From NCBI GenBank assembly GCA_964474455.1, contig CAYYSU010000010.1:518-64517 (forward strand): 64,000 nucleotides of DNA, read 5' to 3'. A model generated the notes under the pieces. It searched no databases. It had not been told where the DNA came from and was given only the letters and a program-made list of their open reading frames with translations. The stretch is from an uncultured Bacteroidales bacterium (GTDB taxonomy: Bacteria > Bacteroidota > Bacteroidia > Bacteroidales > BM520). Positions 10,218 to 53,328 of the stretch are shown in pieces. Positions within the stretch are counted from its first letter, which is position 1. The number at the start of each line of letters is the position of its first letter. A program made the position numbers and the translations under genes.

Positions 10218-11400
10218 CGATTATTTTCTGTTTTTTCCTTTCGGGGATGAAAAATATGAATAATAACGATATTATGGATAATCCTGTTGCAACGTAAAAC
10301 ATTTTTTCCAATCCCATGAAGTCTGCCAGCATTCCGGAGAGAAATACGGCCAGTGAGCTCATGGTGAAGTTCAGTGTCATATATATGCCATTTATGAAGG
10401 CAGGATGATTGGTTTCGGTATCCTGTACCATGGCTAGTAGTACTGGAGTGCTGCCGAAAATAAGCAATCCGGTACAAATCAGGAATACTATACTCATCGC
10501 ACCGGAAGATTGTAAGAACGCAAACATGGCTATTGGGGTGGATATTGCCATGATGGCGAGGGCTTTTTTGCGCCCAATCTTATCCGATGCTGTTCCTGCC
10601 ACTAATGTTCCCGCCGCGCCGGCAAGCTGGAAGATAGAGAGCGATATTCCCGCAGACCACAGTGAACCGCCTTCTCCTGTGAGGAAAGTGGGCAAAAAAG
10701 TACTCATACTCGACTTCAATAGTGCACGGAAGAACATATATCCGGTAATCACTGCAAAGAAAGGAAGGAGTTTTTTCAGTGCCTTCCACGGATGTGTCGG
10801 TGATTCAATGCGTTTCACATCGTCGCGAACCTTTACATTATGCAACCGCCACCATAATAACAACGATGCCAGCAGTCCAAAAGGAATAAGCTTCCACGTG
10901 CCTTCGAGCCCCCAGATAGTTACTGCACCAAGGATTGTCAGTGGTCCCAGGGTACGTGCAATCTCGCCTCCCATCATGTAAAAGCTCATCCCTTTACCTG
11001 TCTGTAAGCCGGATAATTTCTTTACCATTACAGGGGATGGAACATGATACAATGCGCCGCTGGTGCCGGCCACTAACAGCAGTATGGCAAGAACAAAGTA
11101 GGAGGGAGCCACGCCAATGAGGCTCATGGCTACGGCAGTAATAGCCGGACATAAAATCACCAGGTATCGCATCTGAATCTTATCTGCCAGCAAACCAATA
11201 AAAGGATTCATAAGATTGGGTAAGCGCTGAAATAACGAGAGCATCCCCGCAAGGGTATAGTTAATGCTCATCTTCTCTATTATCAGTGGTAATACAGGCG
11301 CCAGAAACGATCCGTACACGTCATGTATAAGATGTGACAGAGAAAGAAGAGTGATATTACCTGTTTGAAACTTTTCGGGACTCTTTTTCATTGTCGGCAA
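10210..11400 (-). CDS. MFS transporter
   Basis: The 396-aa ORF has about 12 hydrophobic segments and an MFS-like loop motif (GLLADKIQMRY; ASDKIGRKK). Confidence 0.8.
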   Translation of the reverse strand: MPTMKKSPEKFQTGNITLLSLSHLIHDVYGSFLAPVLPLIIEKMSINYTLAGMLSLFQRLPNLMNPFIGLLADKIQMRYLVILCPAITAVAMSLIGVAPSYFVLAILLLVAGTSGALYHVPSPVMVKKLSGLQTGKGMSFYMMGGEIARTLGPLTILGAVTIWGLEGTWKLIPFGLLASLLLWWRLHNVKVRDDVKRIESPTHPWKALKKLLPFFAVITGYMFFRALLKSSMSTFLPTFLTGEGGSLWSAGISLSIFQLAGAAGTLVAGTASDKIGRKKALAIMAISTPIAMFAFLQSSGAMSIVFLICTGLLIFGSTPVLLAMVQDTETNHPAFINGIYMTLNFTMSSLAVFLSGMLADFMGLEKMFYVATGLSIISLLFIFFIPERKKQKIIDD

Positions 11401-11438
11401 AGGTACAAAAGTGTTCTTTCTTTAAGTAAATAATGAAC

Positions 11439-11446
11439 TATATTTG
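11439..11446 (+). promoter_or_regulatory. Candidate -7 promoter box TATATTTG
   Basis: It matches TAnnTTTG and lies 18 nt upstream of the ATG at 11464. Confidence 0.45.
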
Positions 11447-11463
11447 CAGCCTTAAATAGTCGA

Positions 11464-12750
11464 ATGAAAATAGTGTCATTATCCCAACTAAACGCAGCAG
11501 AACAAAAGACCTTTAAGTTGCATACGGCATACTCTTTAATCGAGGGTGTGGTGCTGGGTGTATTGGCGTTGAATGAGTTTGTCTTTATTAAAAGTCTTAA
11601 CGGATCGCCTTACCAGCTTAGCTTTCTGTTTCAGTTTAGCATGGTGGTATTCGTTTTTCTTATTTTTATAAATGAATTTGTACGACGCACAAAGCTAAAG
11701 CGCAGGATGCTTCGTAGAGTGGGTCTGCTCACTCGTCTGCCACTTATAGGCCTGCTCTTTTTCCCTCGGATCCCGGCGGCATACGACGGTGATAGTATAT
11801 ACCATTACATCTTTTTAGCCATATTTTTGATCTATTACCTAGCTGCTCCAATAGTCAATCCCACCATCAACCTGTTTCTGAAAAATGCTTACCGGCACAA
11901 GAACTTCTCTCGGCTGTACTCTGTAAGTACATCATTGAATAAAATCGTAATGCTGGTGGTGACCTTTTCCTACGGGTTATTGCTTGATAATGACCCGTAT
12001 GCCTTTACCTACGTTTTCCCTGTGGTAGCAGTGTTGGGAATACTATCTATCTTCATCTTCTCACGTATTCCATATCGTCTGCCCGACAATATGGGTGAGC
12101 CGGAGCCCTTTATGAAATCTGTGAGTAGTTCCATGAAGAGGATGCTATCTATAGTATGGAAAAATAAACCTTTTCTGCATTTCGAGGCCGCCTTTATGTT
12201 TTATGGCTTTGCTTTTATGTCGACAGTTTCGGTGATATTTATATATTTTGAGGAGGCTCTGCACCTGAATTATTCCAGTGTAGCGTTTTATCGCAATGCT
12301 TATAATATTGGAGCAATTGTATTGTTGCCAATTGCCGGCCGGCTGCTGAGTTCTGTGGACCCGCGGAAGTTTAGTGTCATTACCTTCGGATCCATGTTTA
12401 CATATATCGGATTTCTTGTGTTAACGGATTTTTTCCCTGGCAACTTTGAGTTTATGGGAATCACTGTGTTTTATATGTTGATTGGATATATCCTGTTTCA
12501 TGCTGTTTTTGCCTCTACAATGCCACTGTTATGGAATATTGGTTCAGCATATTATTGTGCTGATGAGGATGCCGGCGATTATCAGGCGGTACATCTGTGG
12601 CTGACAGGAATCAGATCTGTGTTTGCTCCTGCAGTAGGTATTGTCTTTTACCAGCAGTTTGGATTTATTGCAACATTCATTATCGGGATGGCGTCGTTGT
12701 TTATTGCAATTATAATCAGTATGTGGTCATACTACACTTCGTCTCGTTGA
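11464..12750 (+). CDS. Polytopic membrane transporter, MFS-like
   Basis: The 428-aa ORF has about 12 hydrophobic segments. It is transcribed divergently from the other MFS gene. Confidence 0.65.
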   Translation: MKIVSLSQLNAAEQKTFKLHTAYSLIEGVVLGVLALNEFVFIKSLNGSPYQLSFLFQFSMVVFVFLIFINEFVRRTKLKRRMLRRVGLLTRLPLIGLLFFPRIPAAYDGDSIYHYIFLAIFLIYYLAAPIVNPTINLFLKNAYRHKNFSRLYSVSTSLNKIVMLVVTFSYGLLLDNDPYAFTYVFPVVAVLGILSIFIFSRIPYRLPDNMGEPEPFMKSVSSSMKRMLSIVWKNKPFLHFEAAFMFYGFAFMSTVSVIFIYFEEALHLNYSSVAFYRNAYNIGAIVLLPIAGRLLSSVDPRKFSVITFGSMFTYIGFLVLTDFFPGNFEFMGITVFYMLIGYILFHAVFASTMPLLWNIGSAYYCADEDAGDYQAVHLWLTGIRSVFAPAVGIVFYQQFGFIATFIIGMASLFIAIIISMWSYYTSSR

Positions 12751-12781
12751 TGGTTGGATCATCAATTTCGATAAAAACAGA

Positions 12782-13510
12782 TTATTTAAACCTCTTTTGG
12801 AGCTCTCTTTTAATCTTTTCTGCGTAGCTGTTGTCGGGTGTGAATACCGTGATTTCGTAATGATTTCCCTCATCATCATTACCCAGATACCTTATTACAG
12901 GATCCTTGCTCAGCGAACTCCATGGTTGGCGCAGAATAAACTGCTTTATATCTGCTGCTTGTGTTTTTGGAGGAGTTTCCCCGTTAATGGAGATTGCAAA
13001 TTTGAAGCTCTGTGACTGCTCTGTGTTTTGATGCCTAATAATTCTCTTTCCTGATATGGCGGTATATGGTATTAACTCAATATCTCCCGAGGCATTTTTT
13101 AGTTCAATATATCTGGATTTGAACGATATCACCTTGCCTGAGACATTTTCATATTCAATGCTCTCCCCAATGGAGATTTCGTTTCCTGTTCTGAATATAA
13201 AAGCAGCAACGTAATCGCGGAGACGATACCACGTGTACCAAATAATAGCTGACAACGCTATTGTAAAGACCAGGATGCCCAGGAGTTTATGATGGTTATA
13301 AAAAACTGGTATTGATTCGTAAAAAACCCACAACCAAAATAATACTTCCAGGATTGGAATTCCAATACCAATAATCCTTTTTGATAGTTCTTTTTTCATC
13401 ATCAAAGGAAGATATTTCTTTATAATCCTTAGAATGACGTATCCTGTCAAGGTGAAAATTAGTAGCCAAAAAAGGTTACCCTGTGTTATTTCGTGAATGG
13501 TAATTTCCAT
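12782..13510 (-). CDS. Small mechanosensitive-channel (MscS)-family membrane protein
   Basis: The 242-aa ORF has three N-terminal TM segments. These are followed by an MscS-like beta-domain (ISIGESIEYENVSGKVISFKSRYIELKNASGDIELIPYTAI) and a C-terminal alpha/beta region. Its ATG (13510) lies 1 nt from the stop of the giant gene (13512). Confidence 0.6.
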   Translation of the reverse strand: MEITIHEITQGNLFWLLIFTLTGYVILRIIKKYLPLMMKKELSKRIIGIGIPILEVLFWLWVFYESIPVFYNHHKLLGILVFTIALSAIIWYTWYRLRDYVAAFIFRTGNEISIGESIEYENVSGKVISFKSRYIELKNASGDIELIPYTAISGKRIIRHQNTEQSQSFKFAISINGETPPKTQAADIKQFILRQPWSSLSKDPVIRYLGNDDEGNHYEITVFTPDNSYAEKIKRELQKRFK

Positions 13511-13511
13511 A

Positions 13512-14500
13512 TTACAAGAGTTCAGCTTTTTTTAATCTTTCAACAATAAACCTGTATAGCACAGGATTTATTTCGTATATGCCTGAATCGTTAACATTTA
13601 CCAGGTCTTTGCGATTTAGAGTTTCCAGGACATTTGCAGCTTCTTCTTTCTTTATCTGCATAATACGCGACAACTTCTCTGCTGTTGCCTGGCGGTGGAT
13701 GATAAGTTGTACCAGTGAGAAAAGTGCTGTCTCTTCGAGTTTCTCAATAGGAATATCTTCGGGTATCGAGGGGTTTTTCATCTCCAGAATATTACCATTT
13801 ATATTTTGGATGTTGGAGATCCATGATGCCAAAGCAATACCAATATTTCCATTGCTAAAGTTGAAATATCGTGAGAATAAACGAGCAAAATGCCATGGTC
13901 TGAAGTTGTTCTCATGCCTGCCGTTGAGGCTGAATTTAATGCCTCCCGCACGATGGCGCCGCATAACGATTGTCTCTATTTGTCTGGTATCAAAAGGCAT
14001 AAGACGTATCTCTCCCGAAAAGACTTCATCAATAGTCGATACCTTTCTCATGATATTGTAGCTCACAGTTCCTGTATTTGCAATAAAAAGTATCTTTTCT
14101 GCATATTTTTCGATCACCCTTTTTATGATTTCAAGTACTTGGTTTCCACCTTCAGTTCTGATCCACCATAATTCTATATTGTCAAAAATGATAATACTGT
14201 TTATCGGTAAAGTCTTAAGAGCTTCGTCCCAGGATTTGTTTTCTGATTCCAGGCTATCTGCAAGCGTGGCGTAGAATGATTTTTTTGATATGGAGCCTCC
14301 CACAGGTGGTGTAACCATAAATATTGGTGCCGAATCGGAGTGTATGGCTGCCACATGTTCACAGAAATATGTGTTTCCCGAAAATTGTTCTCCCGTGACA
14401 AGGATAGCTCCTGTTCGACGTTGTTTATATCGATTATGAAATATCTCAAAGTCGTGGATCTCCTTCTCCCTTCCAATCCAGAATTCCGGAGCATATTGCT
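13512..14500 (-). other. Domain segment: Arch_ATPase/ATPase_2-like NTPase with degenerate Walker motifs, followed by a winged-helix-like tail
   Basis: FWIGREKEIHDF precedes a P-loop-like GEQFSGNT (14370..14393). The Walker B-like motif is IIIFDNIELWW (14163..14195). The C-terminal sequence is LSRIMQIKKEEAANVLETLNRKDLVNV. Confidence 0.55.
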
Positions 14501-17500
14501 GTTTACGCATGAAAAGCTGACGATAGTAAAATGGTATTTCTGATATTGGAATAACATTTCCCATCTGTGCTGTAATACGTGCGAGGCTTTCACTTTTCTT
14601 TTCCGCGTTGTTGGCACTTATAAGCCTGTTATGTAACAATACTCCCCGGCTTTGACGATACCACAGGTTGGTAAGAAATTCTCTTGTGCCACACTTCACT
14701 GTTTTTATGGTGCGTGTAAACACATTATTTATTTCCTCGCGTTCCCGGTTTCTGATGTAGTGTTTTAAGTTCCCTGCTGTACGTAGAAAAGGCTGTAGGC
14801 TGAGACGTCCGGAGAAGATCTCCAGAATGCGATTTATCTCTGCCTTTATCACCTCTTTTTGCTCCTCAAGAATTTTTATTTCACTCTCCAGAATGTCAAT
14901 ATGTGAATTGATAAACTCCTGCTTCTCGTTTTCCGAAAATCCGGAAACTGAAAGCCTCGTGATGATATCATGCTCTTTCAGTATCGATTCTCCGTATATC
15001 TTCATGAAGTGGTTGAGGCTTTTCCTGACCTTTACAGTAAATTCCTGTTGGAACATATGATCAAGTAATTGCTGGCTCTTTACCTCCATGGTCTCAGGTT
15101 CCTCGAAGATTCTTTCACTGATCTCATTCATAAAGCCATCTGAGAGCACATAGAATGTCTCAGGGAAACGTAGAATTTTTCTTTGTAAACGATTGAATGC
15201 GTGGGTGATTTTTGTTTTTGACTCATTTCTGATCTCTTCGTTTTCAATCACTTCACTCAGCTTTTGAATTGAGACATCTCCCTCTTGAAGAATTTTTATA
15301 ACAGCCTTGTGTTTTGCTGAAATATCCTTCTCAATGAGGTTGTCAATAGCATCTGTGATTTCATGGCTGCTGCTCTCCAGTGTGGTGCCTATGAGCATGA
15401 GGTTTAGCTCTAAATACATACTGTTAAACAGATGATTTTGATTCTGCTCCCAGTTGGATATGCGTTCCTCAGTGCCATTGATATACTCTGAAAGTTGCCG
15501 CTCAAAAGTTGATAATTTCTGCTGCTGCTTTTGCTGAACAGGTTGGTTTAAAAGTATAGATATGCTTTTGTTTACACTGTGTAAATACTGATCTGCGTTT
15601 CTTACAAACCTCTTAATTTTTTCATTATTATCATTGACACCTTTGCTTATGATGGAAGTAACTTCATTAATAGCCTCTATCTGGGTATGAAGATGATTTG
15701 GATCTGCATTATTAAATGAGATATAACTCTTTATTAGTGTATCATGTAACTGCTCTATTGATACATAGTTAGCAATTATTAGATGTATAACATTTTTTTC
15801 ATTTTCAGATAGTAAATTAGCCAGACCTGGTATTATTTCTCTATTGAGAATTCTCTGAACAGGGATACTCTTCGATTTTCCTTTTCCTTTATTCTGAATA
15901 TACTTCTCTAGTTTTATGCGATATGCTTTGGACGCATCGATATCATATTCTGTTTGGGTTATTGATTCTTTTCCCAGGGTTATTTCAAGGCGGTTTGGTG
16001 CTTCCTTCACAATTTGTTGCAGCTCTCCGGCAACCTTCTCAGGAGTGTTGATAATCATAGCGTTAACAGCTGGTATAGTCTCTTTTTCCAGCCTGCCGTA
16101 ATGACCTCTAAGGTTAAGGATTAATTTCCTGTATGCTGCACGCCTCACTGTGATCGCTGATCGCTCGGTGCTCTGAGTTTCATCAGTTTGCGATAAAGCT
16201 ATTTTACAATCGTTAAGGATGTCATGATAGACTTTATCGAAATGTGTTGCCACTGTGGCGAAATCATTGCCATAGCTCTCCATAGTTTTTTTTATGGATA
16301 GCAAAGCTGGTGTACATGCCGATCTTATTTCTGGATGGATTAATTCAGGAATCTCTTCCTTTCTGGTTTGATGGAATGCCTTCAACTGAGCCGGCATACC
16401 TTTTTGGTAACTAAGGTTCAGTTTTTCAAACTCTGAGGATGATTTTACCAGTAAAACGGATCCCAGGTCTCTGCAAAGAATATTTGTGGCATCAATAAAT
16501 GCTTCACTTTTGCTTTTTGAGAAATCAGGAATACCCAAAATAATCAGATCTGCTTCCCTGGACTCTTTGAGAATAATTTCATGGTGCGGCTTCTTCTCAA
16601 AATGATTGTTTAATACTGAAATCTCTCCATCAATACGAACCTTATCGAGAAGGTTTGATACCGAGCGATATATGGTTTTTGCGTCGTCGTTGGAATCATT
16701 TAATACAAAGATTCTGAGGGTGCTTTTAGCCCATATATCCGTATACCAAAGGAATCTTACCACATAGAGCGGCAATACTCCATTCATATCTGATGGCGTA
16801 ACATATAGGTCGATTTTTTTATGTTTTCCAAAGCCTTTATTATTATCGTAATCAAGCATCATTACGTTTAGGTCAAGCTTATATAGGTTATCGAGCATTT
16901 GTACAAAGCGCTCCGGGTTTTTGCTTTGTCGTGCCCAGCCCATCAACACAGTGTTGGGTTCAATACCACTAAAGCCATATGTCTTGGCAATGGTTTCGAT
17001 ACCTTCATAAATATCTGTGCAGACATGATTTCTGGTGAAAATGCCTTTTTTTTCTGTGGACTTCACGTCATAATCTCTTGTTGGAACTATTGACTGCTTT
17101 TTAGTTTTTTCCGAGAGGTCGAAATTGCTGAGGAATCCATGTTTTCCTGATAGCCATTGTCCAAAATCAACAAGATAGGGACGCGCTGCGGTGCCTCCAC
17201 TGAAGAGAATGATATTGGGACGCCAGTTACGTTCTTCCAATCGCCGTCTGTTGACTCTGGCGAGTGCGCTTTTGGTTAGCGTGTTCCATACGCTGGTCCA
17301 CACATCTCCAAATTCGGATTTTAGCTTTTGGCGCCTGAGAAAAAGGTATATTATGGCGATAATTATTATTGCTGCCATCATAGTCAGTGGGTCAAGCTCA
17401 TACATTACGGCGAAGCAGGCTATAAAACCTACTATCCCGAACCATCGGTTTACTTTAAACGATGGTCGGAAATCTGTCGATGCCCAATTTTCAAGCGTAA

Positions 17501-18593
17501 AAGCAAGGTTAATAAAGCCATAAGCTGCGATGTAGAACATGGATACCACTCCTGCAATGACGTTCAGCTCACCGATGAGTATTCCGGCTTCAGCAATTAG
17601 GAATGTTAGAATCAATGCGTTGCGGGGCTCATTTCCCTTTCCATAGCCTTTTGCAAAAATACGAGGCCCAATCTTATCCATAGATATGGCCTGCATAATA
17701 CGTGGTGCTCCCAGGATTCCTCCTAAAGCAGAACTTAAGGTGGCACCCCAGATTCCTGCTATTACCAAGGGCGAAAACCAGGCGATTTTTAATATGAAAT
17801 CCGTGTCGTTAACAAGCATGTCGCGGCGGACAAATACTGCAAAGAGAATTGCCATAGCAATATATACCACCAGCCCGACACCTATTGCCAACATGGTGCC
17901 TTTGGGAATGGAGCTTTTAGGATTCTTCAAGTCACCCGACATGGCGACGCCGGCAGTAAAACCTGTGGCAGCGGGGAAGAAAATTCCGAAGATTATAGCA
18001 AGAGGCTTCCCACCTTCTATGGGATCCATTGCGGTGTGCTGAGGATGATAGTCTATGTTTAGGAATAACCCAACAACAATACTGATGATGGACAAGGCCA
18101 TGGCTCCAAGGATAAAGAATTGAGTCTTTATTACTACCGAGGTGCTGATAAAAGCTAATATTACCAGTGCTACAATCACTACACTACCAACGATCCTATA
18201 ACCATTAACCCCGGGAGGCAGATTCAGAAATTCCGCGATGCTGTCAAGTGCCAGGAAAGACTCAGCAAATCCGATTATGTAAAGAGAGATGCTGAGAGCT
18301 GTTCCCACAAAAATAGTGAGGCCAATGGCTCCTCCGGCAGGAAGCCCCAGGCTGCGCGAAAGCATATAATAGATGCCTCCGGTACGGATTTTTTTATCCG
18401 TAGCAATACTGGAGATACTCAACCCGGTAGTGATACTGATGATATGAGCTATAAAGATAATCGCCAGAGTATAAATGAGGCCTGCCTGACCTACAACCCA
18501 ACCCAGACGCATATACATGATAACACCCAGAATGGTTAATATGGAAGGAGTGAAGACTCCTGCGAATGTCCCGAATTTCTTTGTCTTACCCAT
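13512..18593 (-). CDS. Giant fusion protein: SLC12/CCC-family cation-chloride cotransporter, a long helical region, and an Arch_ATPase (Orc1/Cdc6-like) NTPase-like domain with a winged helix
   Basis: This is a single uninterrupted 1693-aa ORF. The N-terminus, FGTFAGVFTPSILTILGVIMYMRLGWVVGQAGL, is the CCC (TC 2.A.30) signature. The CCC cytoplasmic domain is marked by NWRPNIILFSGG and NTVLMGWARQ. The C-terminus has FWIGREKE...ILVTGEQFSGNTYF...IIIFDNIELWW and an HTH-like tail. Confidence 0.85.
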   Translation of the reverse strand: MGKTKKFGTFAGVFTPSILTILGVIMYMRLGWVVGQAGLIYTLAIIFIAHIISITTGLSISSIATDKKIRTGGIYYMLSRSLGLPAGGAIGLTIFVGTALSISLYIIGFAESFLALDSIAEFLNLPPGVNGYRIVGSVVIVALVILAFISTSVVIKTQFFILGAMALSIISIVVGLFLNIDYHPQHTAMDPIEGGKPLAIIFGIFFPAATGFTAGVAMSGDLKNPKSSIPKGTMLAIGVGLVVYIAMAILFAVFVRRDMLVNDTDFILKIAWFSPLVIAGIWGATLSSALGGILGAPRIMQAISMDKIGPRIFAKGYGKGNEPRNALILTFLIAEAGILIGELNVIAGVVSMFYIAAYGFINLAFTLENWASTDFRPSFKVNRWFGIVGFIACFAVMYELDPLTMMAAIIIIAIIYLFLRRQKLKSEFGDVWTSVWNTLTKSALARVNRRRLEERNWRPNIILFSGGTAARPYLVDFGQWLSGKHGFLSNFDLSEKTKKQSIVPTRDYDVKSTEKKGIFTRNHVCTDIYEGIETIAKTYGFSGIEPNTVLMGWARQSKNPERFVQMLDNLYKLDLNVMMLDYDNNKGFGKHKKIDLYVTPSDMNGVLPLYVVRFLWYTDIWAKSTLRIFVLNDSNDDAKTIYRSVSNLLDKVRIDGEISVLNNHFEKKPHHEIILKESREADLIILGIPDFSKSKSEAFIDATNILCRDLGSVLLVKSSSEFEKLNLSYQKGMPAQLKAFHQTRKEEIPELIHPEIRSACTPALLSIKKTMESYGNDFATVATHFDKVYHDILNDCKIALSQTDETQSTERSAITVRRAAYRKLILNLRGHYGRLEKETIPAVNAMIINTPEKVAGELQQIVKEAPNRLEITLGKESITQTEYDIDASKAYRIKLEKYIQNKGKGKSKSIPVQRILNREIIPGLANLLSENEKNVIHLIIANYVSIEQLHDTLIKSYISFNNADPNHLHTQIEAINEVTSIISKGVNDNNEKIKRFVRNADQYLHSVNKSISILLNQPVQQKQQQKLSTFERQLSEYINGTEERISNWEQNQNHLFNSMYLELNLMLIGTTLESSSHEITDAIDNLIEKDISAKHKAVIKILQEGDVSIQKLSEVIENEEIRNESKTKITHAFNRLQRKILRFPETFYVLSDGFMNEISERIFEEPETMEVKSQQLLDHMFQQEFTVKVRKSLNHFMKIYGESILKEHDIITRLSVSGFSENEKQEFINSHIDILESEIKILEEQKEVIKAEINRILEIFSGRLSLQPFLRTAGNLKHYIRNREREEINNVFTRTIKTVKCGTREFLTNLWYRQSRGVLLHNRLISANNAEKKSESLARITAQMGNVIPISEIPFYYRQLFMRKQQYAPEFWIGREKEIHDFEIFHNRYKQRRTGAILVTGEQFSGNTYFCEHVAAIHSDSAPIFMVTPPVGGSISKKSFYATLADSLESENKSWDEALKTLPINSIIIFDNIELWWIRTEGGNQVLEIIKRVIEKYAEKILFIANTGTVSYNIMRKVSTIDEVFSGEIRLMPFDTRQIETIVMRRHRAGGIKFSLNGRHENNFRPWHFARLFSRYFNFSNGNIGIALASWISNIQNINGNILEMKNPSIPEDIPIEKLEETALFSLVQLIIHRQATAEKLSRIMQIKKEEAANVLETLNRKDLVNVNDSGIYEINPVLYRFIVERLKKAELL
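14501..16409 (-). other. Domain segment: about 630-aa helical/coiled-coil-like linker with no family I recognise
   Basis: The composition is rich in E/K/Q/I/L/N with heptad-like stretches (for example ILESEIKILEEQKEVIKAEINRILEIF). There are no TM segments and no recognisable catalytic motifs. Confidence 0.5.
16410..17259 (-). other. Domain segment: SLC12-type cytoplasmic C-terminal domain (about residues 445-730)
   Basis: Motifs are NWRPNIILFSGGTAARPYL, EPNTVLMGWARQ, LRIFVLNDSNDD and ADLIILGIPDF. The boundaries are approximate. Confidence 0.65.
17260..18593 (-). other. Domain segment: APC-superfamily/SLC12 transmembrane transporter core (about residues 1-445)
   Basis: There are about 12 hydrophobic segments plus the CCC N-terminal signature. 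The boundaries are approximate. Confidence 0.75.
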
Positions 18594-18663: not shown

Positions 18664-20016
18664 TTATCCTTTATACCGAACCCATTTCCACAACTCTTTG
18701 TACGTTACCTTCTTGCCATACATAAGGATTCCTGTGCGGTATATTTTTCCTGCTACCCAGGTCATGCCTACAAAGGTAAGTATCAGAATAAGAACAGATA
18801 TAACTATCTGTATATAAGGAACACCAAATGGTATTCTCATCATCATGCTAATGGGAGAGGTGAATGGGATCATGCTTAGCCATATGGCCAATGATCCGGA
18901 AGGGTTTTCAATAACCGACGGCATCAGCACAATTGCCAGAACTATCGGTACTGTGATAGGCAGCATAAACTGTTGGGTGTCGGTTTCGTTATCCACGGCA
19001 CCACCGATGGCAGCAAACATAGAAGCATAGAGCAGATATCCACCAAGGAAATAGATAATAAAAGTGAGAAGCATAACGGGGAGATTGATACTTTTTACCA
19101 TATCAAGTATTTCCAGGAAACCTTCTCCCGCAACGTCTTCAATGCCGGAGTCTGACATTTGAACCGTTGCCTGCTCAGGAATTAGATCTGTTGCAGACTC
19201 TGTTACCTGTGGGATATTTTTGTCCAGCAGCTTATCTGAATATATGCTGCTAAAAACACCGACGATAGCCATTGTAAGCACAATCCACAGGAGAAATTGT
19301 GTAAGACCAACAAGGGCAATGCCAATGATTTTACCCATCATAAGTTGGAATGGTTTCACCGAGCTGATAATAATTTCCACTATACGGCTTGTCTTCTCCT
19401 CGATAACGCCACGCATCACCATGGAGCCATAAATAAATATAAACATGTATATTAACAAGCCTCCCAGATAACCCACTGCCATTGCCACCTCGGCATAGGA
19501 TTTTGTCTCTTCACCGTCATCATCAATAGTGAATGAAGTGATGTTGATGGTTGCTGCATTTTTAACTTTTGTATATATCTCAGGATCTATGCCCTCCATT
19601 AGCAGGAATTGCTCCAATACCTCTTCCTTCATCACATTACGGATATATGATTTAGTGGTAACACTAACCTGATCTTTGGCATATATTATTGCATTTTTCG
19701 GGATTACAACTTCTGTGCGGGGAATATACAGCAGATCGTCATAACCATCAGCTGTGTACGTCTCTTTAATCTCTTCTATGGGCTGATCCACTATTGTAAA
19801 TGTCAGCTTTTCAGTATCCTTAAAACGATGTTTGTAGATTCCTGTTTCATCTACAACTACAATTTTACTTGTCTCTTCGCTGTTGACAGCCAGGATCATC
19901 GGTATGACGAATACTGCTGCCATCAGGATCGGTCCCAGGATTGTCATTATGATAAACGAGCGTTTTTTTACTCGTGTCATGTATTCCCGATGTATAATAA
20001 TTCCGGTTTTATTCAT
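18664..20016 (-). CDS. ABC-2 type transporter permease (NatB-like architecture)
   Basis: The 450-aa ORF has one N-terminal TM segment, a roughly 150-aa extracytoplasmic loop, and then 5-6 TM segments. It lies directly downstream of the ABC ATPase. Confidence 0.75.
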   Translation of the reverse strand: MNKTGIIIHREYMTRVKKRSFIIMTILGPILMAAVFVIPMILAVNSEETSKIVVVDETGIYKHRFKDTEKLTFTIVDQPIEEIKETYTADGYDDLLYIPRTEVVIPKNAIIYAKDQVSVTTKSYIRNVMKEEVLEQFLLMEGIDPEIYTKVKNAATINITSFTIDDDGEETKSYAEVAMAVGYLGGLLIYMFIFIYGSMVMRGVIEEKTSRIVEIIISSVKPFQLMMGKIIGIALVGLTQFLLWIVLTMAIVGVFSSIYSDKLLDKNIPQVTESATDLIPEQATVQMSDSGIEDVAGEGFLEILDMVKSINLPVMLLTFIIYFLGGYLLYASMFAAIGGAVDNETDTQQFMLPITVPIVLAIVLMPSVIENPSGSLAIWLSMIPFTSPISMMMRIPFGVPYIQIVISVLILILTFVGMTWVAGKIYRTGILMYGKKVTYKELWKWVRYKG

Positions 20017-20033
20017 GGTTTGTTTTTTTCCTG

Positions 20034-20954
20034 TTATTGATTAATATCGGTTACTTTACGAATAAAGATTTCATTCATAGTAGGCAGTACTTCCTCCATC
20101 ATCGTGAGTTCTCCGTGGTTCATGAGCATAGTTGTTAGCTCATTGGGTTTGCCATTTAGCGGCAGGCGTACTGTGAATAAAGAGTCATTGTTATCTATTA
20201 TCTCTTCCAGAATCTCCACATCAGCCGGAAGAAGTGCTTTGGGCTGCGCATCAAGATTTCGTAGTGCAAAACGGTATGTGTTGGTACGGTTGTCCATCTT
20301 GATATCCTTCATCTTACCTTCCAGTATTTTTTTTGAATTGTTGATAAGTGCAATATGGTCACAGATCTCTTCCACGGAAGCCATGTTATGCGTAGAAAAT
20401 ATCACCGTAGAGCCATTATTCCGAAGGTTCAGAATCTCTTCTTTAAGCAAGTTGACATTTATGGGGTCAAATCCTGAAAATGGTTCATCGAAAATCAGAA
20501 GATCAGGCTGGTGAAGAATAGTAATAATAAACTGAACTTTCTGGGCCATACCCTTGGAAAGCTCTTCAACTTTTTTGCCCCACCAATCTATGATATCAAA
20601 TTTCTCGAACCACACTTTAAGTTTTTTTGCAGCAAGATTTTTTGGGATGCCCTTAAGTTGTGCCAGATACAAAGCCTGTTCACCAACTTTCATCTTTTTA
20701 TACAACCCTCTCTCTTCAGGAAGGTAGCCGATACGTGCAATATGGCTTGCGTTTAGCTTTTCGCCATCAATCCATATCTGGCCACTATCGGGTGCGGTTA
20801 TTTGATTGATGATACGGATAAAGGTTGTTTTACCTGCTCCATTAGGCCCCAATAGTCCGTAGATGCTTTGCTTCGGTAAACTGATACTCACATTATCCAA
20901 CGCTGTATGGTTTTGGTAATGTTTGGAAACATTTTCAGCTTTAAAAAAATCCAT
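20034..20954 (-). CDS. ABC transporter ATP-binding protein (ABC-2/NatA-like subfamily)
   Basis: It has Walker A GPNGAGKTT, signature LSKGMAQK, Walker B LLIFDEPFSGFD and the H-loop STHNM, plus a roughly 80-aa C-terminal extension. Confidence 0.9.
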   Translation of the reverse strand: MDFFKAENVSKHYQNHTALDNVSISLPKQSIYGLLGPNGAGKTTFIRIINQITAPDSGQIWIDGEKLNASHIARIGYLPEERGLYKKMKVGEQALYLAQLKGIPKNLAAKKLKVWFEKFDIIDWWGKKVEELSKGMAQKVQFIITILHQPDLLIFDEPFSGFDPINVNLLKEEILNLRNNGSTVIFSTHNMASVEEICDHIALINNSKKILEGKMKDIKMDNRTNTYRFALRNLDAQPKALLPADVEILEEIIDNNDSLFTVRLPLNGKPNELTTMLMNHGELTMMEEVLPTMNEIFIRKVTDINQ

Positions 20955-21138
20955 ATATTAGGTTTGTTTTTTGTTCGTTTCTATGAACTGATATAATGAG
21001 GACGAAGATAGTATTTTTCTTTTTAAGGATCTTTAGAGATTTTTGGCTTATGTTGATGTTCTTTTATGGTGACATTTTGACAAAAATCTCTGTATGGCAG
21101 AATTTTTGGTCTTTGAGGCCGTCAAAAAAACATATATA

Positions 21139-21807
21139 ATGGCAAAGAAAGAAATGGATCAGGAAAATATGTCAGTTAATGATAAATATCAAACTGCTGA
21201 AGATATGCAAGGTAAAGATAATCACGAGTTTGTAGATGATGTTGACGCCAGAAATGAACAACCTGGAGCAGATGAACTAAATGCTGAAACTAGTGCTGAA
21301 GCAGCAGCTCAAAAAAAGAAAAGTCGATCCAGGAAGAATAAGTCAGACAAACTGTCGCAAGAGAATGAAGAACTTCGTATCAAGCTGGCAGAAGCACAGG
21401 ATAAATATCTTCGCCTGTTTTCTGAATTTGATAACTTTCGTAAACGATCCAACAAAGAGAAAGTTGAGATTTTAAGCAGCGCTTCAGGTGCTCTTATTAA
21501 AGATCTTTTTCCTGTGATGGATGACATGGACAGGGCGCAGGAGAACTTTACAAAATCTTCTGATGTAAAAGCTCTTGCCGAAGGTGTGGATCTGATATTT
21601 GATAAATTTCGTAAAACCTTGGAATCCAAAGGTCTGGAAGAGATAGAGTCAACAGGTACGGAGTTTGATACAGACTTTCATGAAGCTGTAGCTCAATTTC
21701 CTGTCGCCGATGAATCACAGAAGAATATAATTGTTGATACCACAGAAAAGGGGTATATTATTAATGGAAAAGTAATCCGTCATGCGAAAGTAGTTGTCGG
21801 GGTTTAA
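21139..21807 (+). CDS. grpE: Nucleotide exchange factor GrpE
   Basis: It has an acidic N-terminus, a coiled coil ([30 protein letters not shown]) and a C-terminal beta domain ([16 protein letters not shown]). The start is set at ATG 21139; the track ORF starts at 21094. Confidence 0.9.
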
Positions 21808-48378: not shown

Positions 48379-48526
48379 GGTGCTGCCGTTTAAAAAATTA
48401 GTCAAAAGTATGAAAAATGATGATGCCAGAGTGGCTTTATCTTTTTTACACAGCAAAAATATGCAAAACAATCATAATGGTTTTTTTATATGATGGATTA
48501 TTTTAAAAAACAAATGAGAAAATGAA

Positions 48527-48534
48527 TACCTTTG
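48527..48534 (+). promoter_or_regulatory. Candidate -7 promoter box TACCTTTG driving the cobalamin riboswitch leader
   Basis: It matches TAnnTTTG and lies immediately 5' of the riboswitch P1 stem. Confidence 0.45.
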
Positions 48535-48538
48535 CTTC

Positions 48539-48719
48539 GTTATTGGTTCCGCTGCGGATGCATTCCGCATGGATTAAAAGGGAATGTCGTGAAAGTCGGC
48601 AACAGTTCCCGCTGCTGTAATTCCTGCGCTATTAGCGTAAAAGTTGAACTATAAAGCCACTGTTTATTATTAATGGGAAGGCCTCAACTAAAAGGATAAG
48701 TCAGAAGACCTACCATAAC
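48539..48719 (+). ncRNA. Cobalamin (B12) riboswitch aptamer
   Basis: The conserved blocks appear in the correct order. They are GGTTCC (48545), AAAAGGGAA (48576..48584), GTGAAAGTC (48589..48597), CCCGCTGCTGTAA (48608..48620), GCCACTG (48656..48662), GGGAAGGC (48675..48682) and the B12 box AAGTCAGAAGACCTACC (48698..48714). P1 pairs GTTAT(T)GG with CCATAAC. B12-related genes lie downstream. Confidence 0.88.
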
Positions 48720-48822
48720 ATGGAATCTGCATCTGCGGTGAACGGAGGCAATCAGGATACCCTCCCGATAGCTTCTCTCCACAGAAAACAGGCTCACACA
48801 TTAAAATTTTAGTATTGTAAGG

Positions 48823-50235
48823 ATGAAAAAACTACTGATTACAATAGCATATATTGCTGTTGCCGGGATAGCCTCAGCACAATACATCAGCGAAGTGTAT
48901 GAATACAATCCTGCGCCCGGGCAGTGGCTCAATGTTGCACCCTGGGGAACCCCCGACGCCATGGAATCAATAAAAGGTGGTATTAACGGTAGCATGACAC
49001 TGGGTGCCTTTGGTGGCTATGTTGTCTTTGGATTTGAAAACCCCGTGGAAAATGATCCGCAAAATCCTTATGGCGTGGACTTTTCAATCTTCGGCAACTC
49101 ATATGATGATTGGTCTGAACCCGCCGTAGTTTACGTTATGAAGGATGACAATCAAAACGGTCTTCCCGACGATATATGGTATCTGCTGGCCGGGAGTGAC
49201 TACTTCTTCTCCTCGTCAATACATGATTATGAGGTGACTTACACTAACCCCGGTGGAACCGATGCCGAGGATATTCCATGGACTGATAATAAAGGAAATT
49301 CAGGGGTTTTAGAGGTAAATAATATACATCCTCAACCCTGGTATCCTATGCAGGAATTATTCCCGCAAACAGATCCCGAAGAGTATACCTTGTCGGGATC
49401 GTTTGTTTCCACAAAGGTGGATGTGAATAATTCGATCTTGATAAAATCATACTGCCGTACTTTTGGATATGCCGACAACCACAAACGTAACCTCGGAGTG
49501 CACACTATACCTGATAATCCTTATACAGATGAACTTGAGAATAGTGGGGGTGATGCTTTCGATATCTCATGGGCTATAAATAAAGATGGTGAGTATGTCG
49601 ATCTTGAGATGATTCATTTCGTAAAGGTGCAATCTGCCGCTTTAGAAAATGCCGGTGTTCTGGGCGAAATATCCACTGAGGTGTGTGGAGCCGTCGATGT
49701 GAGTCCCAATGATACTATTTTCGGGCCTGAAAAAGTGCTGGTGGTGAAAGACCTGCCTGTCATACTTACATCTTCTACATGGCAGATGGAGTATGCTGAG
49801 TTTGAAAATGGACGTATCCGCAATGACGCCGAAGCAGAATGGACGGTGAGCATGCCGGGAGCTTATGTCGATGATAATGATATTCTTCATGTGCCAACCA
49901 CAGGAGTGCTTACGATAACGGCCACATCTGTTTTTAATCCGGAATTATCCTGCACGCAGTCATCTGTTGTTGATTTCTCAAGCGGAATGAAAGAAAATAG
50001 AATCCACGAGAACATAACTCTTTATCCTGTGCCGGCCTCTCACAGCCTGAACCTTTTATTACCGGAGTCGGGGAGAGCCCGCATCATCAATTCTCAGGGA
50101 GTTATTGTTTGGGAGCGAGATCTTGAAAAGGGAGATCAGATTGTTGATGTTTTAAGTTATCGTAATGGTGTTTATCTGTTTGTCGTAGAGGGTGTTAACG
50201 CCTTTTTTTGCAATAAATTTGTTATAAAAAAATGA
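48823..50235 (+). CDS. T9SS-sorted cell-surface/secreted protein of unknown function; first gene of the B12-riboswitch operon
   Basis: The 470-aa ORF has a signal peptide and the C-terminal sorting domain ITLYPVPASHSLNLLL...GVYLFVVEGVNAFFCNKFVIKK. It overlaps the downstream TonB-dependent receptor gene by 4 nt. Confidence 0.7.
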   Translation: MKKLLITIAYIAVAGIASAQYISEVYEYNPAPGQWLNVAPWGTPDAMESIKGGINGSMTLGAFGGYVVFGFENPVENDPQNPYGVDFSIFGNSYDDWSEPAVVYVMKDDNQNGLPDDIWYLLAGSDYFFSSSIHDYEVTYTNPGGTDAEDIPWTDNKGNSGVLEVNNIHPQPWYPMQELFPQTDPEEYTLSGSFVSTKVDVNNSILIKSYCRTFGYADNHKRNLGVHTIPDNPYTDELENSGGDAFDISWAINKDGEYVDLEMIHFVKVQSAALENAGVLGEISTEVCGAVDVSPNDTIFGPEKVLVVKDLPVILTSSTWQMEYAEFENGRIRNDAEAEWTVSMPGAYVDDNDILHVPTTGVLTITATSVFNPELSCTQSSVVDFSSGMKENRIHENITLYPVPASHSLNLLLPESGRARIINSQGVIVWERDLEKGDQIVDVLSYRNGVYLFVVEGVNAFFCNKFVIKK

Positions 50236-52226
50236 TAAGGTACCTGTCTCTGCTCCTGTTGTTGTTTTCATCCGCTCTTAAGGCTCAAGAGAGTAATGAT
50301 ACCATTATCACTCTTCCTGTTGCTAGGATTTTTGATACCCGAATTTTTTTGCCCGAAGAGGCGGGCATAAAGACCACCAAAGTGGATACGTTGATAATGA
50401 TGGATAAGCTCGCACAGGATCTTTCGGATCTCCTTTCCGAGAATTCCCATGTGTTTATTAAAAGCTATGGACGTGGTGCTATGGCTACTGCAGCTTTTCG
50501 TGGAACGGCGCCATCACACACACAGGTTTACTGGAATGGCATTAATATCAACAGTCCTATGTTGGGGATGGTGGATTTTTCTCTTATACCGGTGTATATC
50601 CTCGATGATGTATCACTGAACCACGGAACTTCCAGCATTATCGACGGCAATGGCGGGCTGGGTGGTTCCATAAATCTGGATAACTCTGCGCGGTGGGAGA
50701 GTGGTTTCGACCTGAAGTTCCTCCAGGGAGCAGGCATGTTCTGCTCATTTGAAGATTTCCTCTCCTTAAAGACAGGAAATGACCGCTTTCAGTCAGAAAC
50801 ACGACTCTATTACTCATCCTCAAAAAATGATTACACATTCGTGAACCGCTATAACTATGACCTGGATCCTGAGTCGGGGGAATTTATTTATAAGATTGAT
50901 ACCAACAAAAATTCTGACTATCTGAAATATGGCGTGTTACAGGAGTTTTACTATCGTGAGAGATCAGGTGCTGTATGGTCATTGCGATATTGGGGACAGC
51001 TCTCCGGGCGTTCCATTCCCGGCGTGGCAAGCTACGAAGGACCGGAGGTGTCACGACTGAACAGAATCTCCGATGACGACCATAAGATTGTGCTGAACAG
51101 AAGGTTTTCTTCGGCAAAGCATACGCTGGAGTTGCAGTCCGGCTTTCAGTACCATTTTGTAAACTATTATCTAAAAAATTATATCCCCGGATACGGATAT
51201 CGGAATGAGGTTTTCTCAAACAGTACTGTACAGAGCCTCTTTAATAAAGCTGAATACAGACAAAATTTCAGCGATAACTGGTTGTTAAACGTAACTGCCT
51301 CCTGGGATTATCATGAAGTATCTACCGTTGATACAGTTACGTCGGCCGGCTATGATAATCACCGTAACGATATCTCTCTCTTTGTCTCTTTGCGCAAGCA
51401 GTTCTTTAACAGGCTTAATACCAGCCTTATGCTGCGGCAGGGTTTTGTGGATAGTGAACTTTTGCCCCCGGCTCCTTTTCTTGGTTTTGATCTGCTTTTG
51501 GCTAAGGAGAGGAGCATTATTCTAAAGGGAAATATTGGCAGGAATTATCATCAGCCTACTCTTAATGACCTCTACTGGATGCCTGGAGGGAATCCTGATC
51601 TGAAACCGGAAGATGGAATCAGCACCGAGCTGGGATTGGAGATGATCTTTGAATCCGGAAATGTTTATTTTGTTCCGGGTATATCGCTGTTTTTTTCGGA
51701 TATAGATAATTGGATAATCTGGTTGCCGACAAAGCAGGGATACTGGGAGCCAAATAATGTCAAAAGAGTAGTGTCTAAAGGCCTGGAGGCATCGGCAAAT
51801 ATCTCCTGGCGTCTTGGTGATGTGGAATTTCGATCCATTGCAACATATTCCTGTACCCGAGCCCTTAACTATGGTGACACAGCGTTGTGGGGAGATGAAT
51901 CGTATGGAAAACAACTGGTTTATATACCCGTACATTCGGGCAATATAATGTTAAGTTCCCACTGGAGAAAATGGTCTCTCTCATGGCAAAATAATAGCTA
52001 TAGTCGACGATTTACCACAAGTAGTAATGACCTGACCGACAGATATTCGTTCTATCCCTATTTTATGAATAACCTGAAGATTGGAAGAGACTTTTCATTT
52101 AAAGCATTTAATATCTCAACAGAATTGAAAATCAATAACCTGTTTAACGAGAAGTATCATTCGGTTTTGATTCAGCCCATGCCTGGAATTAATGCCATGT
52201 TTCAGTTAATGATAGATCTTAAGTAA
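50232..52226 (+). CDS. TonB-dependent outer-membrane receptor (BtuB-like by context)
   Basis: It has a signal peptide, a plug domain (HVFIKSYGRGAMATAAFRGTAPSHTQVYWNGININSP) and a beta-barrel of about 500 aa with a terminal NNLFNEKY motif. It is under the B12 riboswitch. Confidence 0.85.
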   Translation: MIRYLSLLLLLFSSALKAQESNDTIITLPVARIFDTRIFLPEEAGIKTTKVDTLIMMDKLAQDLSDLLSENSHVFIKSYGRGAMATAAFRGTAPSHTQVYWNGININSPMLGMVDFSLIPVYILDDVSLNHGTSSIIDGNGGLGGSINLDNSARWESGFDLKFLQGAGMFCSFEDFLSLKTGNDRFQSETRLYYSSSKNDYTFVNRYNYDLDPESGEFIYKIDTNKNSDYLKYGVLQEFYYRERSGAVWSLRYWGQLSGRSIPGVASYEGPEVSRLNRISDDDHKIVLNRRFSSAKHTLELQSGFQYHFVNYYLKNYIPGYGYRNEVFSNSTVQSLFNKAEYRQNFSDNWLLNVTASWDYHEVSTVDTVTSAGYDNHRNDISLFVSLRKQFFNRLNTSLMLRQGFVDSELLPPAPFLGFDLLLAKERSIILKGNIGRNYHQPTLNDLYWMPGGNPDLKPEDGISTELGLEMIFESGNVYFVPGISLFFSDIDNWIIWLPTKQGYWEPNNVKRVVSKGLEASANISWRLGDVEFRSIATYSCTRALNYGDTALWGDESYGKQLVYIPVHSGNIMLSSHWRKWSLSWQNNSYSRRFTTSSNDLTDRYSFYPYFMNNLKIGRDFSFKAFNISTELKINNLFNEKYHSVLIQPMPGINAMFQLMIDLK

Positions 52227-53323
52227 TGATAAAAAAATTGCTCCATATAATAATTGTTTTTTCAGCCGTAATAAGTTTGTCTTGCATGAAGGATGATGAG
52301 TTATGGCAGAAGAGAACTCCTCCTGAGATAAAATCCTTTGATGGAATCTTTATTATCAACGAGGGTAACTTTATGTATAATAATGCCTCTCTCTCTTATT
52401 ATGATATTGAGAACAGGGAGGTCTTTAATGATGTTTTTTATGATGTGAACGGTCATCCGCTGGGAGATGTGGCATTGTCATCCGTTATAAGAGATTCACT
52501 CTTGTTTGTGGTTATGAATAACAGCGGGAAGATAATTATTCTTGATGCAGATGATTTCTCCTATAAGGGAAAGATCACCGGATTGACTTCTCCCCGTTAT
52601 ATTCATTTTATTAATGATGAAAAGGCTTATGTAACGGATTTGTATGCCCAAGCAATTACTGTGGTAAATCCTACCACATGCGAGGTTACTGGTCATATTT
52701 TAGTTCATAACAGAGCTTCCTCTTTTAATCAGCATCCCACTGAGCAGATGGTAGCCATTGGCGAAAAAATATTTGTGAATTGCTGGAGTTTTGATAATAA
52801 AATATTGGTTATAGATAGTAATACCGATGAGGTTATCGACTCTCTTGAAGTAGCGAAACAGCCTAACTCAATGGTGGTCGATAAATTTAACCGACTATGG
52901 GTGTTGTCTGATGGTGGCTATACCGGTACGCCTTACGGAGAGGTTCAGCCTGCGTTAACATGTATCGAAACGAACACTTTGAGTATTATAAATGTTATAG
53001 AAATGGATGCGGATGATTCTCCTACAAAACTCTCTATTAATGGTGCAGGCGACACACTATATTTTCTTAATAACGATCTGTACCGTATGTCGGTTTTAGG
53101 AATGGAGAATCCGGAAGTATTTATCGAGAGTCCGTATAGTCATGGATATGTGGGAGGGTTTTATGGACTGAGCATAGATCCTTCAACATCTGAAATATAT
53201 ATTGCCGACGGCATAAATTTCAGCCAGCCCGGCGTGGTGTATCGTTATACCGCCGAGGCTGCTGCCATAGATACTTTTATGGTGGGGGTAATCCCCGGCG
53301 CATTTTGTTTTAAAGAAAAATAG
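52226..53323 (+). CDS. Surface beta-propeller lipoprotein (YncE/DUF5074-like; BtuG-like by context)
   Basis: It has the lipobox VISLSC and repeated blades of about 45 aa (for example LFVVMNNSGKIIILD, AYVTDLYAQAITVVN, IFVNCWSFDNKILVID, LWVLSDGG, IYIADG). Confidence 0.6.
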   Translation: MIKKLLHIIIVFSAVISLSCMKDDELWQKRTPPEIKSFDGIFIINEGNFMYNNASLSYYDIENREVFNDVFYDVNGHPLGDVALSSVIRDSLLFVVMNNSGKIIILDADDFSYKGKITGLTSPRYIHFINDEKAYVTDLYAQAITVVNPTTCEVTGHILVHNRASSFNQHPTEQMVAIGEKIFVNCWSFDNKILVIDSNTDEVIDSLEVAKQPNSMVVDKFNRLWVLSDGGYTGTPYGEVQPALTCIETNTLSIINVIEMDADDSPTKLSINGAGDTLYFLNNDLYRMSVLGMENPEVFIESPYSHGYVGGFYGLSIDPSTSEIYIADGINFSQPGVVYRYTAEAAAIDTFMVGVIPGAFCFKEK

Positions 53324-53328
53324 ATCCT

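Follow-up and report, generated by a model that had tools for sequence, protein, structure and literature searches.

In a stretch of 64,000 nucleotides from an uncultured Bacteroidales bacterium (assembly GCA_964474455.1, contig CAYYSU010000010.1; hereafter the window), we analyzed an open reading frame (ORF) of 1693 amino acids (aa) in which a complete cation-chloride cotransporter (CCC) runs on into a long helical arm, an AAA+ module and a winged helix (WH), and which is followed directly by the gene of a small MscS-like protein. This combination of CCC, arm, putative AAA+ switch and MscS-like partner is undescribed in the literature searched, yet abundant in metagenomes. We give an even chance to the interpretation that it forms a unit of ion or osmotic homeostasis, in which transport by the CCC would be under nucleotide-switch control and coupled to the MscS-like valve.

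One reading frame from transporter to winged helix

The ORF occupies positions 13512..18593 on the minus strand (stop codon 13512-13514), starts with ATG and translates as a single frame of 1693 aa. The initial annotation of this DNA had proposed the single-frame fusion without stating a strand; it holds on the minus strand, while a plus-strand reading of the same interval gives a translation full of stops and was rejected. Three independently assembled contigs from other SRA runs (SRR21143143, SRR30309648 and SRR11702757; Logan contigs L001-L003) carry DNA 100% identical to the window, with zero nucleotide differences over 7.7-12.9 kb and with both domain junctions included, so that the junctions, which the annotation had wanted checked, are sound. 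As these contigs come from the same strain, they back the assembly and are not independent evolutionary evidence. The strain of the window is present in at least three public sequencing runs. The same single ORF was found in more than 120 other genomes, and both G+C and third-position G+C (GC3) are uniform over the parts of the frame. A scan for sigma-70 promoters and terminators inside the ORF gave a signal no higher than the shuffled expectation, the sigma-70 model being unsuited to Bacteroidota. Identical DNA in other assemblies, the recurrence of the ORF in more than 120 genomes and its even G+C thus show that the fusion is not an assembly artefact.

The first 730 residues constitute the transporter. 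Residues 1-445 (17259..18593, minus strand) correspond to an NKCC-like transport domain with 12 transmembrane (TM) segments of the APC/LeuT fold, as judged from a Pfam AA_permease match over residues 13-421 (PF00324, E 6e-53), the match to NKCC1 and hydrophobicity. Residues 446-730 (16404..17258, minus strand) form the complete SLC12 cytoplasmic C-terminal domain, matched by PF03522 over residues 471-581 (34.7 bits against a gathering score of 27). The signature, the approximately 12 TM segments and the cytoplasmic domain on which the CCC had originally been recognized are therefore all borne out by profile and structure matches, KCC2 included. TIGR00930, the model of the K-Cl cotransporter subfamily, aligned to residues 3-671 (E 3e-127) and missed its curated cut-off (426 bits versus 953); judged by its sequence, the window protein is a CCC lying outside this animal-centred subfamily. 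In a sequence comparison with the PDB, the solved structures of KCC2, NKCC1, KCC3/4 and NCC matched the CCC part with E-values of 1e-67 to 1e-83, NKCC1 being the best match for the TM domain (E 1.2e-74). Residues 671-719 were aligned to residues 1070-1120 of KCC2, which has 1129, that is to its extreme C-terminus. With KCC2 covered to its end, a complete CCC is reached by about residue 725, close to the end near residue 730 that had been expected of a normal CCC, and the approximately 960 further in-frame residues that had been noticed do follow a complete transporter.

Hydrophobic segments are confined to residues 7-424. Because the C-termini of solved CCCs are intracellular and no TM segment occurs later in the protein, the whole extension is assigned by homology to the cytoplasm, in agreement with the original proposal. 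In the alignment with NKCC1, the TM8 motif ATLSSAL and the TM6 motif FFPAATG are identical, and the TM3 YY pair and the TM10 Tyr are retained, while the TM1 Asn is replaced by Thr in the window protein (LTILGV versus LNIWGV). We take the TM8 Ser-Ser pair to belong to the Na+ site, the TM3 Tyr, TM6 P..T and TM1 Asn to the K+ site and the TM10 Tyr to the Cl- site. With these residues, the CCC part presumably moves Na+, K+ and Cl-.

The transporter is followed by an elongated, all-helical arm (residues 731-1340; 14574..16403, minus strand). The AlphaFold2 (AF2) model of this portion is a confident one (pLDDT 85, pTM 0.78); it contains helices of 40-78 residues together with two small beta inserts and predicts a rigid arm of about 610 aa with an unrecognized fold. 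In Foldseek, the closest matches to the arm model had E-values of 0.11 in the PDB and 0.066 in BFVD, so that none reached E<=1e-3, and a Pfam search of the arm in the window protein and 36 relatives gave no significant family. One homologue bears the JGI name 'phosphate uptake regulator'; Pfam PhoU support for it was absent and the name was rejected. The arm is the least conserved portion of the protein, with column identities of 25-44% and one invariant proline, P1144. Because short forms combine it with the CCC only and standalone forms with the AAA+-WH part only, the arm is the common connector.

The remainder consists of an AAA+ base and lid with the lead-in motifs PFYYxQLF and FWxGRxxE (residues 1341-1605; 13779..14573, minus strand) and of a winged helix, three helices and a beta wing, with a C-terminal helix (residues 1606-1693; 13515..13778, minus strand). 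The order of helical arm, NTPase and winged helix, first read from the sequence, was recovered in the AF2 models: that of residues 1331-1693, built on a 71-sequence alignment (pLDDT 92.7, pTM 0.90), comprises an alpha/beta base, a helical lid, a beta hairpin and a three-helix winged helix. Foldseek against the PDB returned, with probability 1.00, RuvB, Pyrobaculum Cdc6, Aeropyrum ORC1/ORC2, Sulfolobus Cdc6/Orc1 and eukaryotic ORC/Cdc6 subunits (E 6e-10 to 1e-7). Also at probability 1.00 were the Pyrococcus Walker-type ATPase PAB2304 (2qen; rank 23, E 2.8e-8), CED-4 (4m9s, E 3e-7) and Apaf-1 (3shf, E 8e-7), and the latter two fold matches indicate that the core of STAND proteins, namely nucleotide-binding domain, helical domain and winged-helix domain, is present in the module. 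PDB sequence searches with the extension, as a single sequence or as a profile, found nothing significant. The window protein scored 17-18.5 bits with AAA_16 (PF13191), under the gathering score of 32.6, and so has no formal membership. At E<=0.01, AAA_16 was matched by 25 of the 36 relatives (best E 2.9e-9), AAA_22 by 18 and AAA by 10, and a few relatives touched the BrxC_BrxD, nSTAND or NACHT models. AAA_16 is thus the nearest family of the NTPase at the sequence level. The Orc1/Cdc6-like fold that had been suggested stands (Foldseek E 6e-10), whereas the assignment to ATPase_2 (PF01637) and DUF234 (PF03008) does not: both models were missing from the matches listed at E<=0.1 for the window protein and from those at E<=0.01 for the 36 relatives, AAA_16 and AAA_22 being found instead.

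We then compared the motifs of the module over 262 family members. The Walker A motif of the window protein, GEQFSGNT (14370..14393, minus strand), departs from the family consensus G[ED]xxSGK[ST] by replacement of the lysine with Asn1407 (codon AAC). In the family, GK[ST] occurs in 243 members (93%), GR[ST] in 11 and GNT in 3, two of the last being the window protein and its own fragment. The nearest relatives of the window protein (L005, P0002, P0151 and P0154) retain the lysine, from which the codon AAC is one substitution away. Since three other assemblies of the same strain carry the identical codon, Asn1407 is real. The motifs originally quoted (FWIGREKE, GEQFSGNT, IIIFDNIELWW and the wHTH tail) are all present, and the one described as a P-loop lacks its Walker A lysine.

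The Walker B region, IIIFDNIELWW (14163..14195, minus strand), is to be compared with the family consensus hhhxDLELWWE and with FDN[ILM]E in the subclade of the window protein; in the family motif xDLE the Asp at the second position reaches 82% and the Glu two residues on 87%, and the window protein reads FDNIE. A candidate sensor 1, positioned from the secondary structure of the model, lies at the end of beta4, where position 1506 is N, T or S in 219 members and position 1508 is N in 202; the window protein has N1506 and G1508. No conserved Arg was found between beta4 and beta5 across the family alignment, and the module therefore has no evident arginine finger. The usual sensor-2 position is occupied by the lid motif GN[IVP]G, which carries no Arg. 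As it stands in place of what we take to be GDxR in the Orc/RFC/RuvB clade, a sensor-2 Arg is lacking too. On the other hand, the R1546-H1547 pair of the first lid helix is ~100% conserved, and no lid Arg other than R1546 is invariant. His1633, which closes the first WH helix, is kept in 257 of 261 members (99%). As a whole, the motif pattern fits an AAA_16/STAND-type nucleotide-dependent switch better than a ring motor. In the organism of the window, normal ATP hydrolysis is probably impaired because the Walker A lysine is lost, and the module may be a nucleotide-binding-only or constitutive form.

Occurrence of the fusion and its MscS-like partner

Searches by word index, whether with the extension by itself or with a profile of 36 sequences, returned only the protein itself and four close relatives, an apparent uniqueness that misleads because the extension diverges fast. 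A genome scan with the CCC half recovered 336 relatives in species-representative genomes. Most of the 80 relatives fetched carry one ORF of ~1690-1755 aa, with 55-60% identity to the window protein in the CCC part and 23-30% in the extension, over 650-1000 residues. An exhaustive HMMER search with the 963-aa extension gave 1541 cluster representatives at E<=1e-3, 873 at <=1e-10 and 370 at <=1e-30; the best 150 of these matches are mostly of ~1700 aa. Similarly, the best 120 matches in a full-length search are all fusions, of 1635-1777 aa. By the labels of their genomes, the 188 carriers recovered with an extension profile belong to Bacteroidales, Marinilabiliales, Saprospiraceae, Sphingobacteriia, Calditrichia, Polyangiaceae, 'Deltaproteobacteria' and a Hyphomicrobiales metagenome-assembled genome (MAG). 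In their sources the family proteins are named only 'amino acid permease', 'amino acid transporter' or 'hypothetical protein', and no description of the CCC-arm-AAA+-WH fusion was found in the literature searched. The rarity that the initial annotation had implied is thus contradicted by a very populous family, which is nevertheless still uncharacterized.

Architectures were counted over distinct complete ORFs of the fetched loci after de-duplication. The full CCC-arm-AAA+-WH form is represented by 126 ORFs (median 1725 aa) and the CCC-arm form by 13 (~1311 aa), beside a few CCC-only proteins (such as the 736-aa relative L076 among the matches) and a few standalone arm-AAA+-WH proteins of 940-1000 aa. 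Split genes occur at L034, L089, L092 and L232, where the pieces overlap or abut and resemble frameshifts or pseudogenes. As had been anticipated for a genuine fusion, the relatives keep it in one frame and not as separate genes, and the most frequent CCC form among the relatives of the window protein, from Bacteroidota-type and other MAGs, is the one with the ~960-aa module. Two further loci were observed: in L229 (3078-11426) the fusion is split or decayed, and it is followed by an additional gene for a CCC alone (736 aa) and, next, by an MscS-like gene, and L165 (5630-11425) has only AA_permease fragments upstream of an intact arm-AAA+-WH and MscS-like pair. Together they suggest repeated loss or replacement of the CCC part.

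The MscS-like gene of the window (12782..13510, minus strand) begins one base past the stop of the fusion (TAA-T-ATG) and encodes 242 aa. The protein has three predicted TM helices (hydrophobic segments 11-31, 44-65 and 73-95) followed by an MscS beta-domain, matched by PF00924 with 26.1 bits against a gathering score of 20.2. NCBIfam yielded no name for it. Of the 121 distinct fusions with enough flank, 101 have a homologue of this gene as the next one downstream on the same strand; none of the 11 CCC-arm-only forms does. No other conserved neighbour of the fusion was found among the fetched loci.

Standalone arm-AAA+-WH genes are likewise followed by an MscS-like gene in L164 and L088. In L088 (1060-10514; Bacteroidia MAG INTA.AUR.004, RZYD01000005), the standalone gene encodes 941 aa and belongs to a same-strand row of TrkH, TrkA, a CPA2 (Kef-like) antiporter, arm-AAA+-WH and the MscS-like gene. 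This locus is orthologous to that of the window, with identities of 77% for an MFS neighbour, 44% for the MscS-like protein and 31-38% for the extension. A search of species-representative genomes for a second arrangement of this type recovered only L088. The Calditrichia MAG locus L135 has, beside the fusion and its MscS-like partner, another AAA_16 protein of at least 895 aa, truncated by the end of the locus and followed by a 394-aa MscS-family gene. A canonical MscS of 287 aa, which carries the full set of three Pfam MscS domains, is found there too; these features lie at 10644-14695 and 795-1655, both on the minus strand. In the distant standalone homologues L004, L085 and L086, the MscS partner is absent or the flanking sequence is missing. 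The arm-AAA+-WH genes of L085 and L086 both adjoin a BipA/TypA GTPase gene.

The CCC-arm-only loci (L010, L018, L020, L033, L038, L057, L069 and L070) form a syntenic group, with a gene for an ADP-forming acetyl-CoA synthetase-like protein (686 aa) and an SSF symporter downstream and a DUF1573 protein and an aminotransferase upstream. A separate AAA+ module or MscS-like gene was searched for next to these forms and none was found. In the window itself, the fusion is immediately preceded on its own strand, across a gap of 70 nt, by genes of an ABC-2 permease and an ABC ATPase (18664-20954, minus strand), and a divergent GrpE gene (21094-21807, plus strand) lies beyond them. Since these neighbours are not conserved elsewhere, co-transcription of the fusion with the ABC genes is possible only in this lineage. 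Elsewhere in the window, a full-length cobalamin riboswitch (RF00174, 90.7 bits) occurs at 48526-48731 (plus strand), 5′ of a run of plus-strand ORFs at 48823-53844.

A candidate switch and competing interpretations

The model that we favour would treat arm-AAA+-WH as a cytoplasmic nucleotide-dependent switch and not as a motor, because a conserved arginine finger and a sensor-2 Arg are lacking while the lid Arg-His pair and the WH His are invariant. Such a switch would set the activity of monovalent-ion transport, here the uptake of Na+, K+ and Cl- by the CCC. In eukaryotic CCCs it is the C-terminal domain that governs activity. The conformation or self-association of AAA+-WH might be passed on to this domain via the arm, which would act as a transmission or sensing element between the two. 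The same module would communicate with the cytoplasmic cage of the MscS-like channel, and ion uptake and emergency release would thereby be coordinated. Two observations chiefly support the model: the Trk/CPA2 context in L088, and the finding that the MscS partner is restricted to forms with the AAA+ module.

Several observations weigh against this model. Its coupling with the MscS-like channel is drawn only from gene order, and 20 of the 121 fusions have no such partner. Similarly, the complete standalone homologues L085 (8001-12997; 995 aa) and L086 (8001-12754; 963 aa) have neither an MscS-like nor a CCC neighbour. Both Walker A and Walker B are degenerate in the window protein, so that ATP-dependent switching may not operate in this organism. 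The extension evolves far faster than the CCC, as would likewise be expected of conflict or adaptor proteins, and all carriers are MAGs. Finally, DNA binding by the WH domain is possible, if poorly supported.

A bolder form of the model, plausible to us and clearly the less probable of the two, is a hitherto unrecognized osmotic homeostat spread over several bacterial phyla, in which the arm-mounted switch would physically couple importers (the fused CCC or the neighbouring Trk/CPA2) with the mechanosensitive valve by reciprocal gating.

Sequence-specific DNA binding is central to a different interpretation, which the initial annotation had suggested and which we now regard as unlikely: a membrane-tethered one-component regulator, or 'transceptor', in which the CCC would sense ion load and the AAA+-wHTH part would bind DNA and control transcription. 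The nearest folds, Cdc6/Orc1 and RuvB, are indeed those of DNA-binding proteins, and the WH fold bears a weak TrmB/MarR resemblance; the TrmB match to the window protein (E 2e-4, 21 bits) nevertheless stays under the Pfam gathering score of 25.6. As a whole, the WH domain has a mildly basic character (median pI 9.1, net charge +2). However, the presumed recognition helix varies in its N-terminal half, where the content of acidic residues is 27-43%, and basic residues make up just 13-21% of the wing. Those basic residues that are conserved cluster in helix 2 and beside the invariant His1633 where helix 1 ends, an arrangement suggestive of contacts within the molecule. By analogy with the WH domains of RuvB, ORC and STAND proteins, an intramolecular or protein-protein role seems more likely. 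Moreover, the conserved partner is a channel and not a regulon, no conserved divergent target gene was seen and the other neighbours are variable. Together with the lost Walker A lysine, these features leave the transceptor weak.

Less probable still is a scaffold or localization device, in which arm and AAA+-WH would tether or cluster the transporter, and the MscS-like channel, at some site in the cell, with no allosteric control of transport. The length and rigidity of the arm would suit such a function, as would the existence of CCC-arm-only forms without an NTPase and of soluble standalone arm-AAA+-WH proteins. However, the nucleotide-binding motifs are conserved in 93% of members, and the MscS partner tracks the AAA+-bearing forms and not the arm.

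We consider improbable, even more than the scaffold, a STAND-like conflict or anti-phage system acting by abortive infection, in which the NTPase would sense infection and the CCC, the MscS-like pore or both would collapse ion gradients. An AAA_16/STAND-like NTPase with Apaf-1 and CED-4 fold matches, the contact of a few members with BrxC_BrxD, nSTAND and NACHT models, the fast divergence of the extension and the membrane-protein partners are all features that such a system might display. Against it, PADLOC-DB 2.0 matched no family for the fusion, the MscS-like protein or two homologues, and the protein ends ~30 residues past the wing, after the WH domain, with no C-terminal repeat sensor (TPR, WD40 or LRR). 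The CCC is highly conserved and retains the aligned NKCC1 motifs of TM3, TM6, TM8 and TM10. In addition, the locus is syntenic between relatives and its neighbours are housekeeping or ion-transport genes (GrpE, ABC-2, MFS, Trk and CPA2), not defence islands.

Lastly, an assembly or frameshift artefact joining separate genes, which the few split loci might bring to mind, is refuted by the three identical assemblies, the 126 distinct complete fusions, the homogeneous composition and the lack of any significant promoter or terminator signal within the ORF, the split cases themselves looking like frameshifts or pseudogenes.

Relation to known systems and significance

With the eukaryotic SLC12 proteins (NKCC1, NCC and KCC1-4) the window protein shares the 12-TM LeuT fold and the cytoplasmic C-terminal domain (E ~1e-83); it differs in lacking their long N-terminal phospho-regulatory tail and in carrying ~960 extra C-terminal residues. 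Animal CCCs are regulated by WNK-SPAK/OSR1 phosphorylation. Plain prokaryotic CCCs (~735 aa) have the same transporter and C-terminal domain and end where the arm of the window protein starts. The C-terminal domain of a Methanosarcina CCC has been solved (Warmuth et al. 2009, cited in PMC4301019), and it is almost only through this 2009 structure that prokaryotic CCCs appear in the literature searched.

The archaeal Orc1/Cdc6, ORC/Cdc6 and RuvB proteins share with the module the same three-domain fold in the same order (1fnn, 1w5t, 2qby, 2v1u and 8efv; E 6e-10 to 1e-8). The FxGRxxE lead-in and the lid helix 'GN.G.AL..W' also resemble, as we take it, the 'GDxR.A...L' helix of the Orc1/Cdc6 clade. 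In contrast with these proteins, the module of the window protein is 11-17% identical, has neither a sensor-2 Arg nor a conserved Arg finger, is tethered to the membrane through the transporter and shows poorly conserved DNA-binding features. With STAND/AAA_16 regulators of the Apaf-1/CED-4 and MalT/LAL types it shares the fold, AAA_16 affinity, an invariant WH His and the lack of an Arg finger, the last two features indicating a switch-like logic; the Walker B 'DDLELWW' resembles the AAA_16 'DDLHWAD'. Unlike them, it has no C-terminal repeat sensor, and the domains joined to it are those of a secondary transporter and of a helical arm that is new. PAB2304 (ATPase_2 plus DUF234) has the same layout of AAA+ followed by wHTH, the likeness being one of fold to 2qen only, with the Pfam models unlisted.

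Regulatory modules of transporters are known from the nucleotide gating of TrkA/KtrA by RCK domains and from the C-terminal helical osmosensor domains of ProP and BetP. With these, the module would have a functional analogy, drawn from gene context, as a cytoplasmic element setting transporter activity; their folds are unrelated to arm-AAA+-WH. The partner shares with the MscS family the three TM helices followed by the MscS beta-domain. Compared with a canonical MscS it is smaller (242 aa), and PF21088 and PF21082 remain unmatched, though both match the 287-aa MscS in L135.

In animals, the control of cell volume and chloride depends centrally on CCC/SLC12 transporters, while to our knowledge bacterial CCCs are almost unstudied. 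If the proposed coupling is true, the family would offer a testable, self-contained model of a secondary transporter under an AAA+/STAND-like nucleotide switch, and would show the coordination of ion uptake with mechanosensitive release; hundreds of proteins now named "amino acid permease" or "hypothetical protein" could also be re-annotated. Were the homeostat to prove true as well, it would represent the first case of secondary transporters and channels regulated by an AAA+/STAND-type protein, and a bacterial counterpart of the kinase-based volume control exerted on animal CCCs. The architecture may thus reveal how bacteria control CCC-class transporters.

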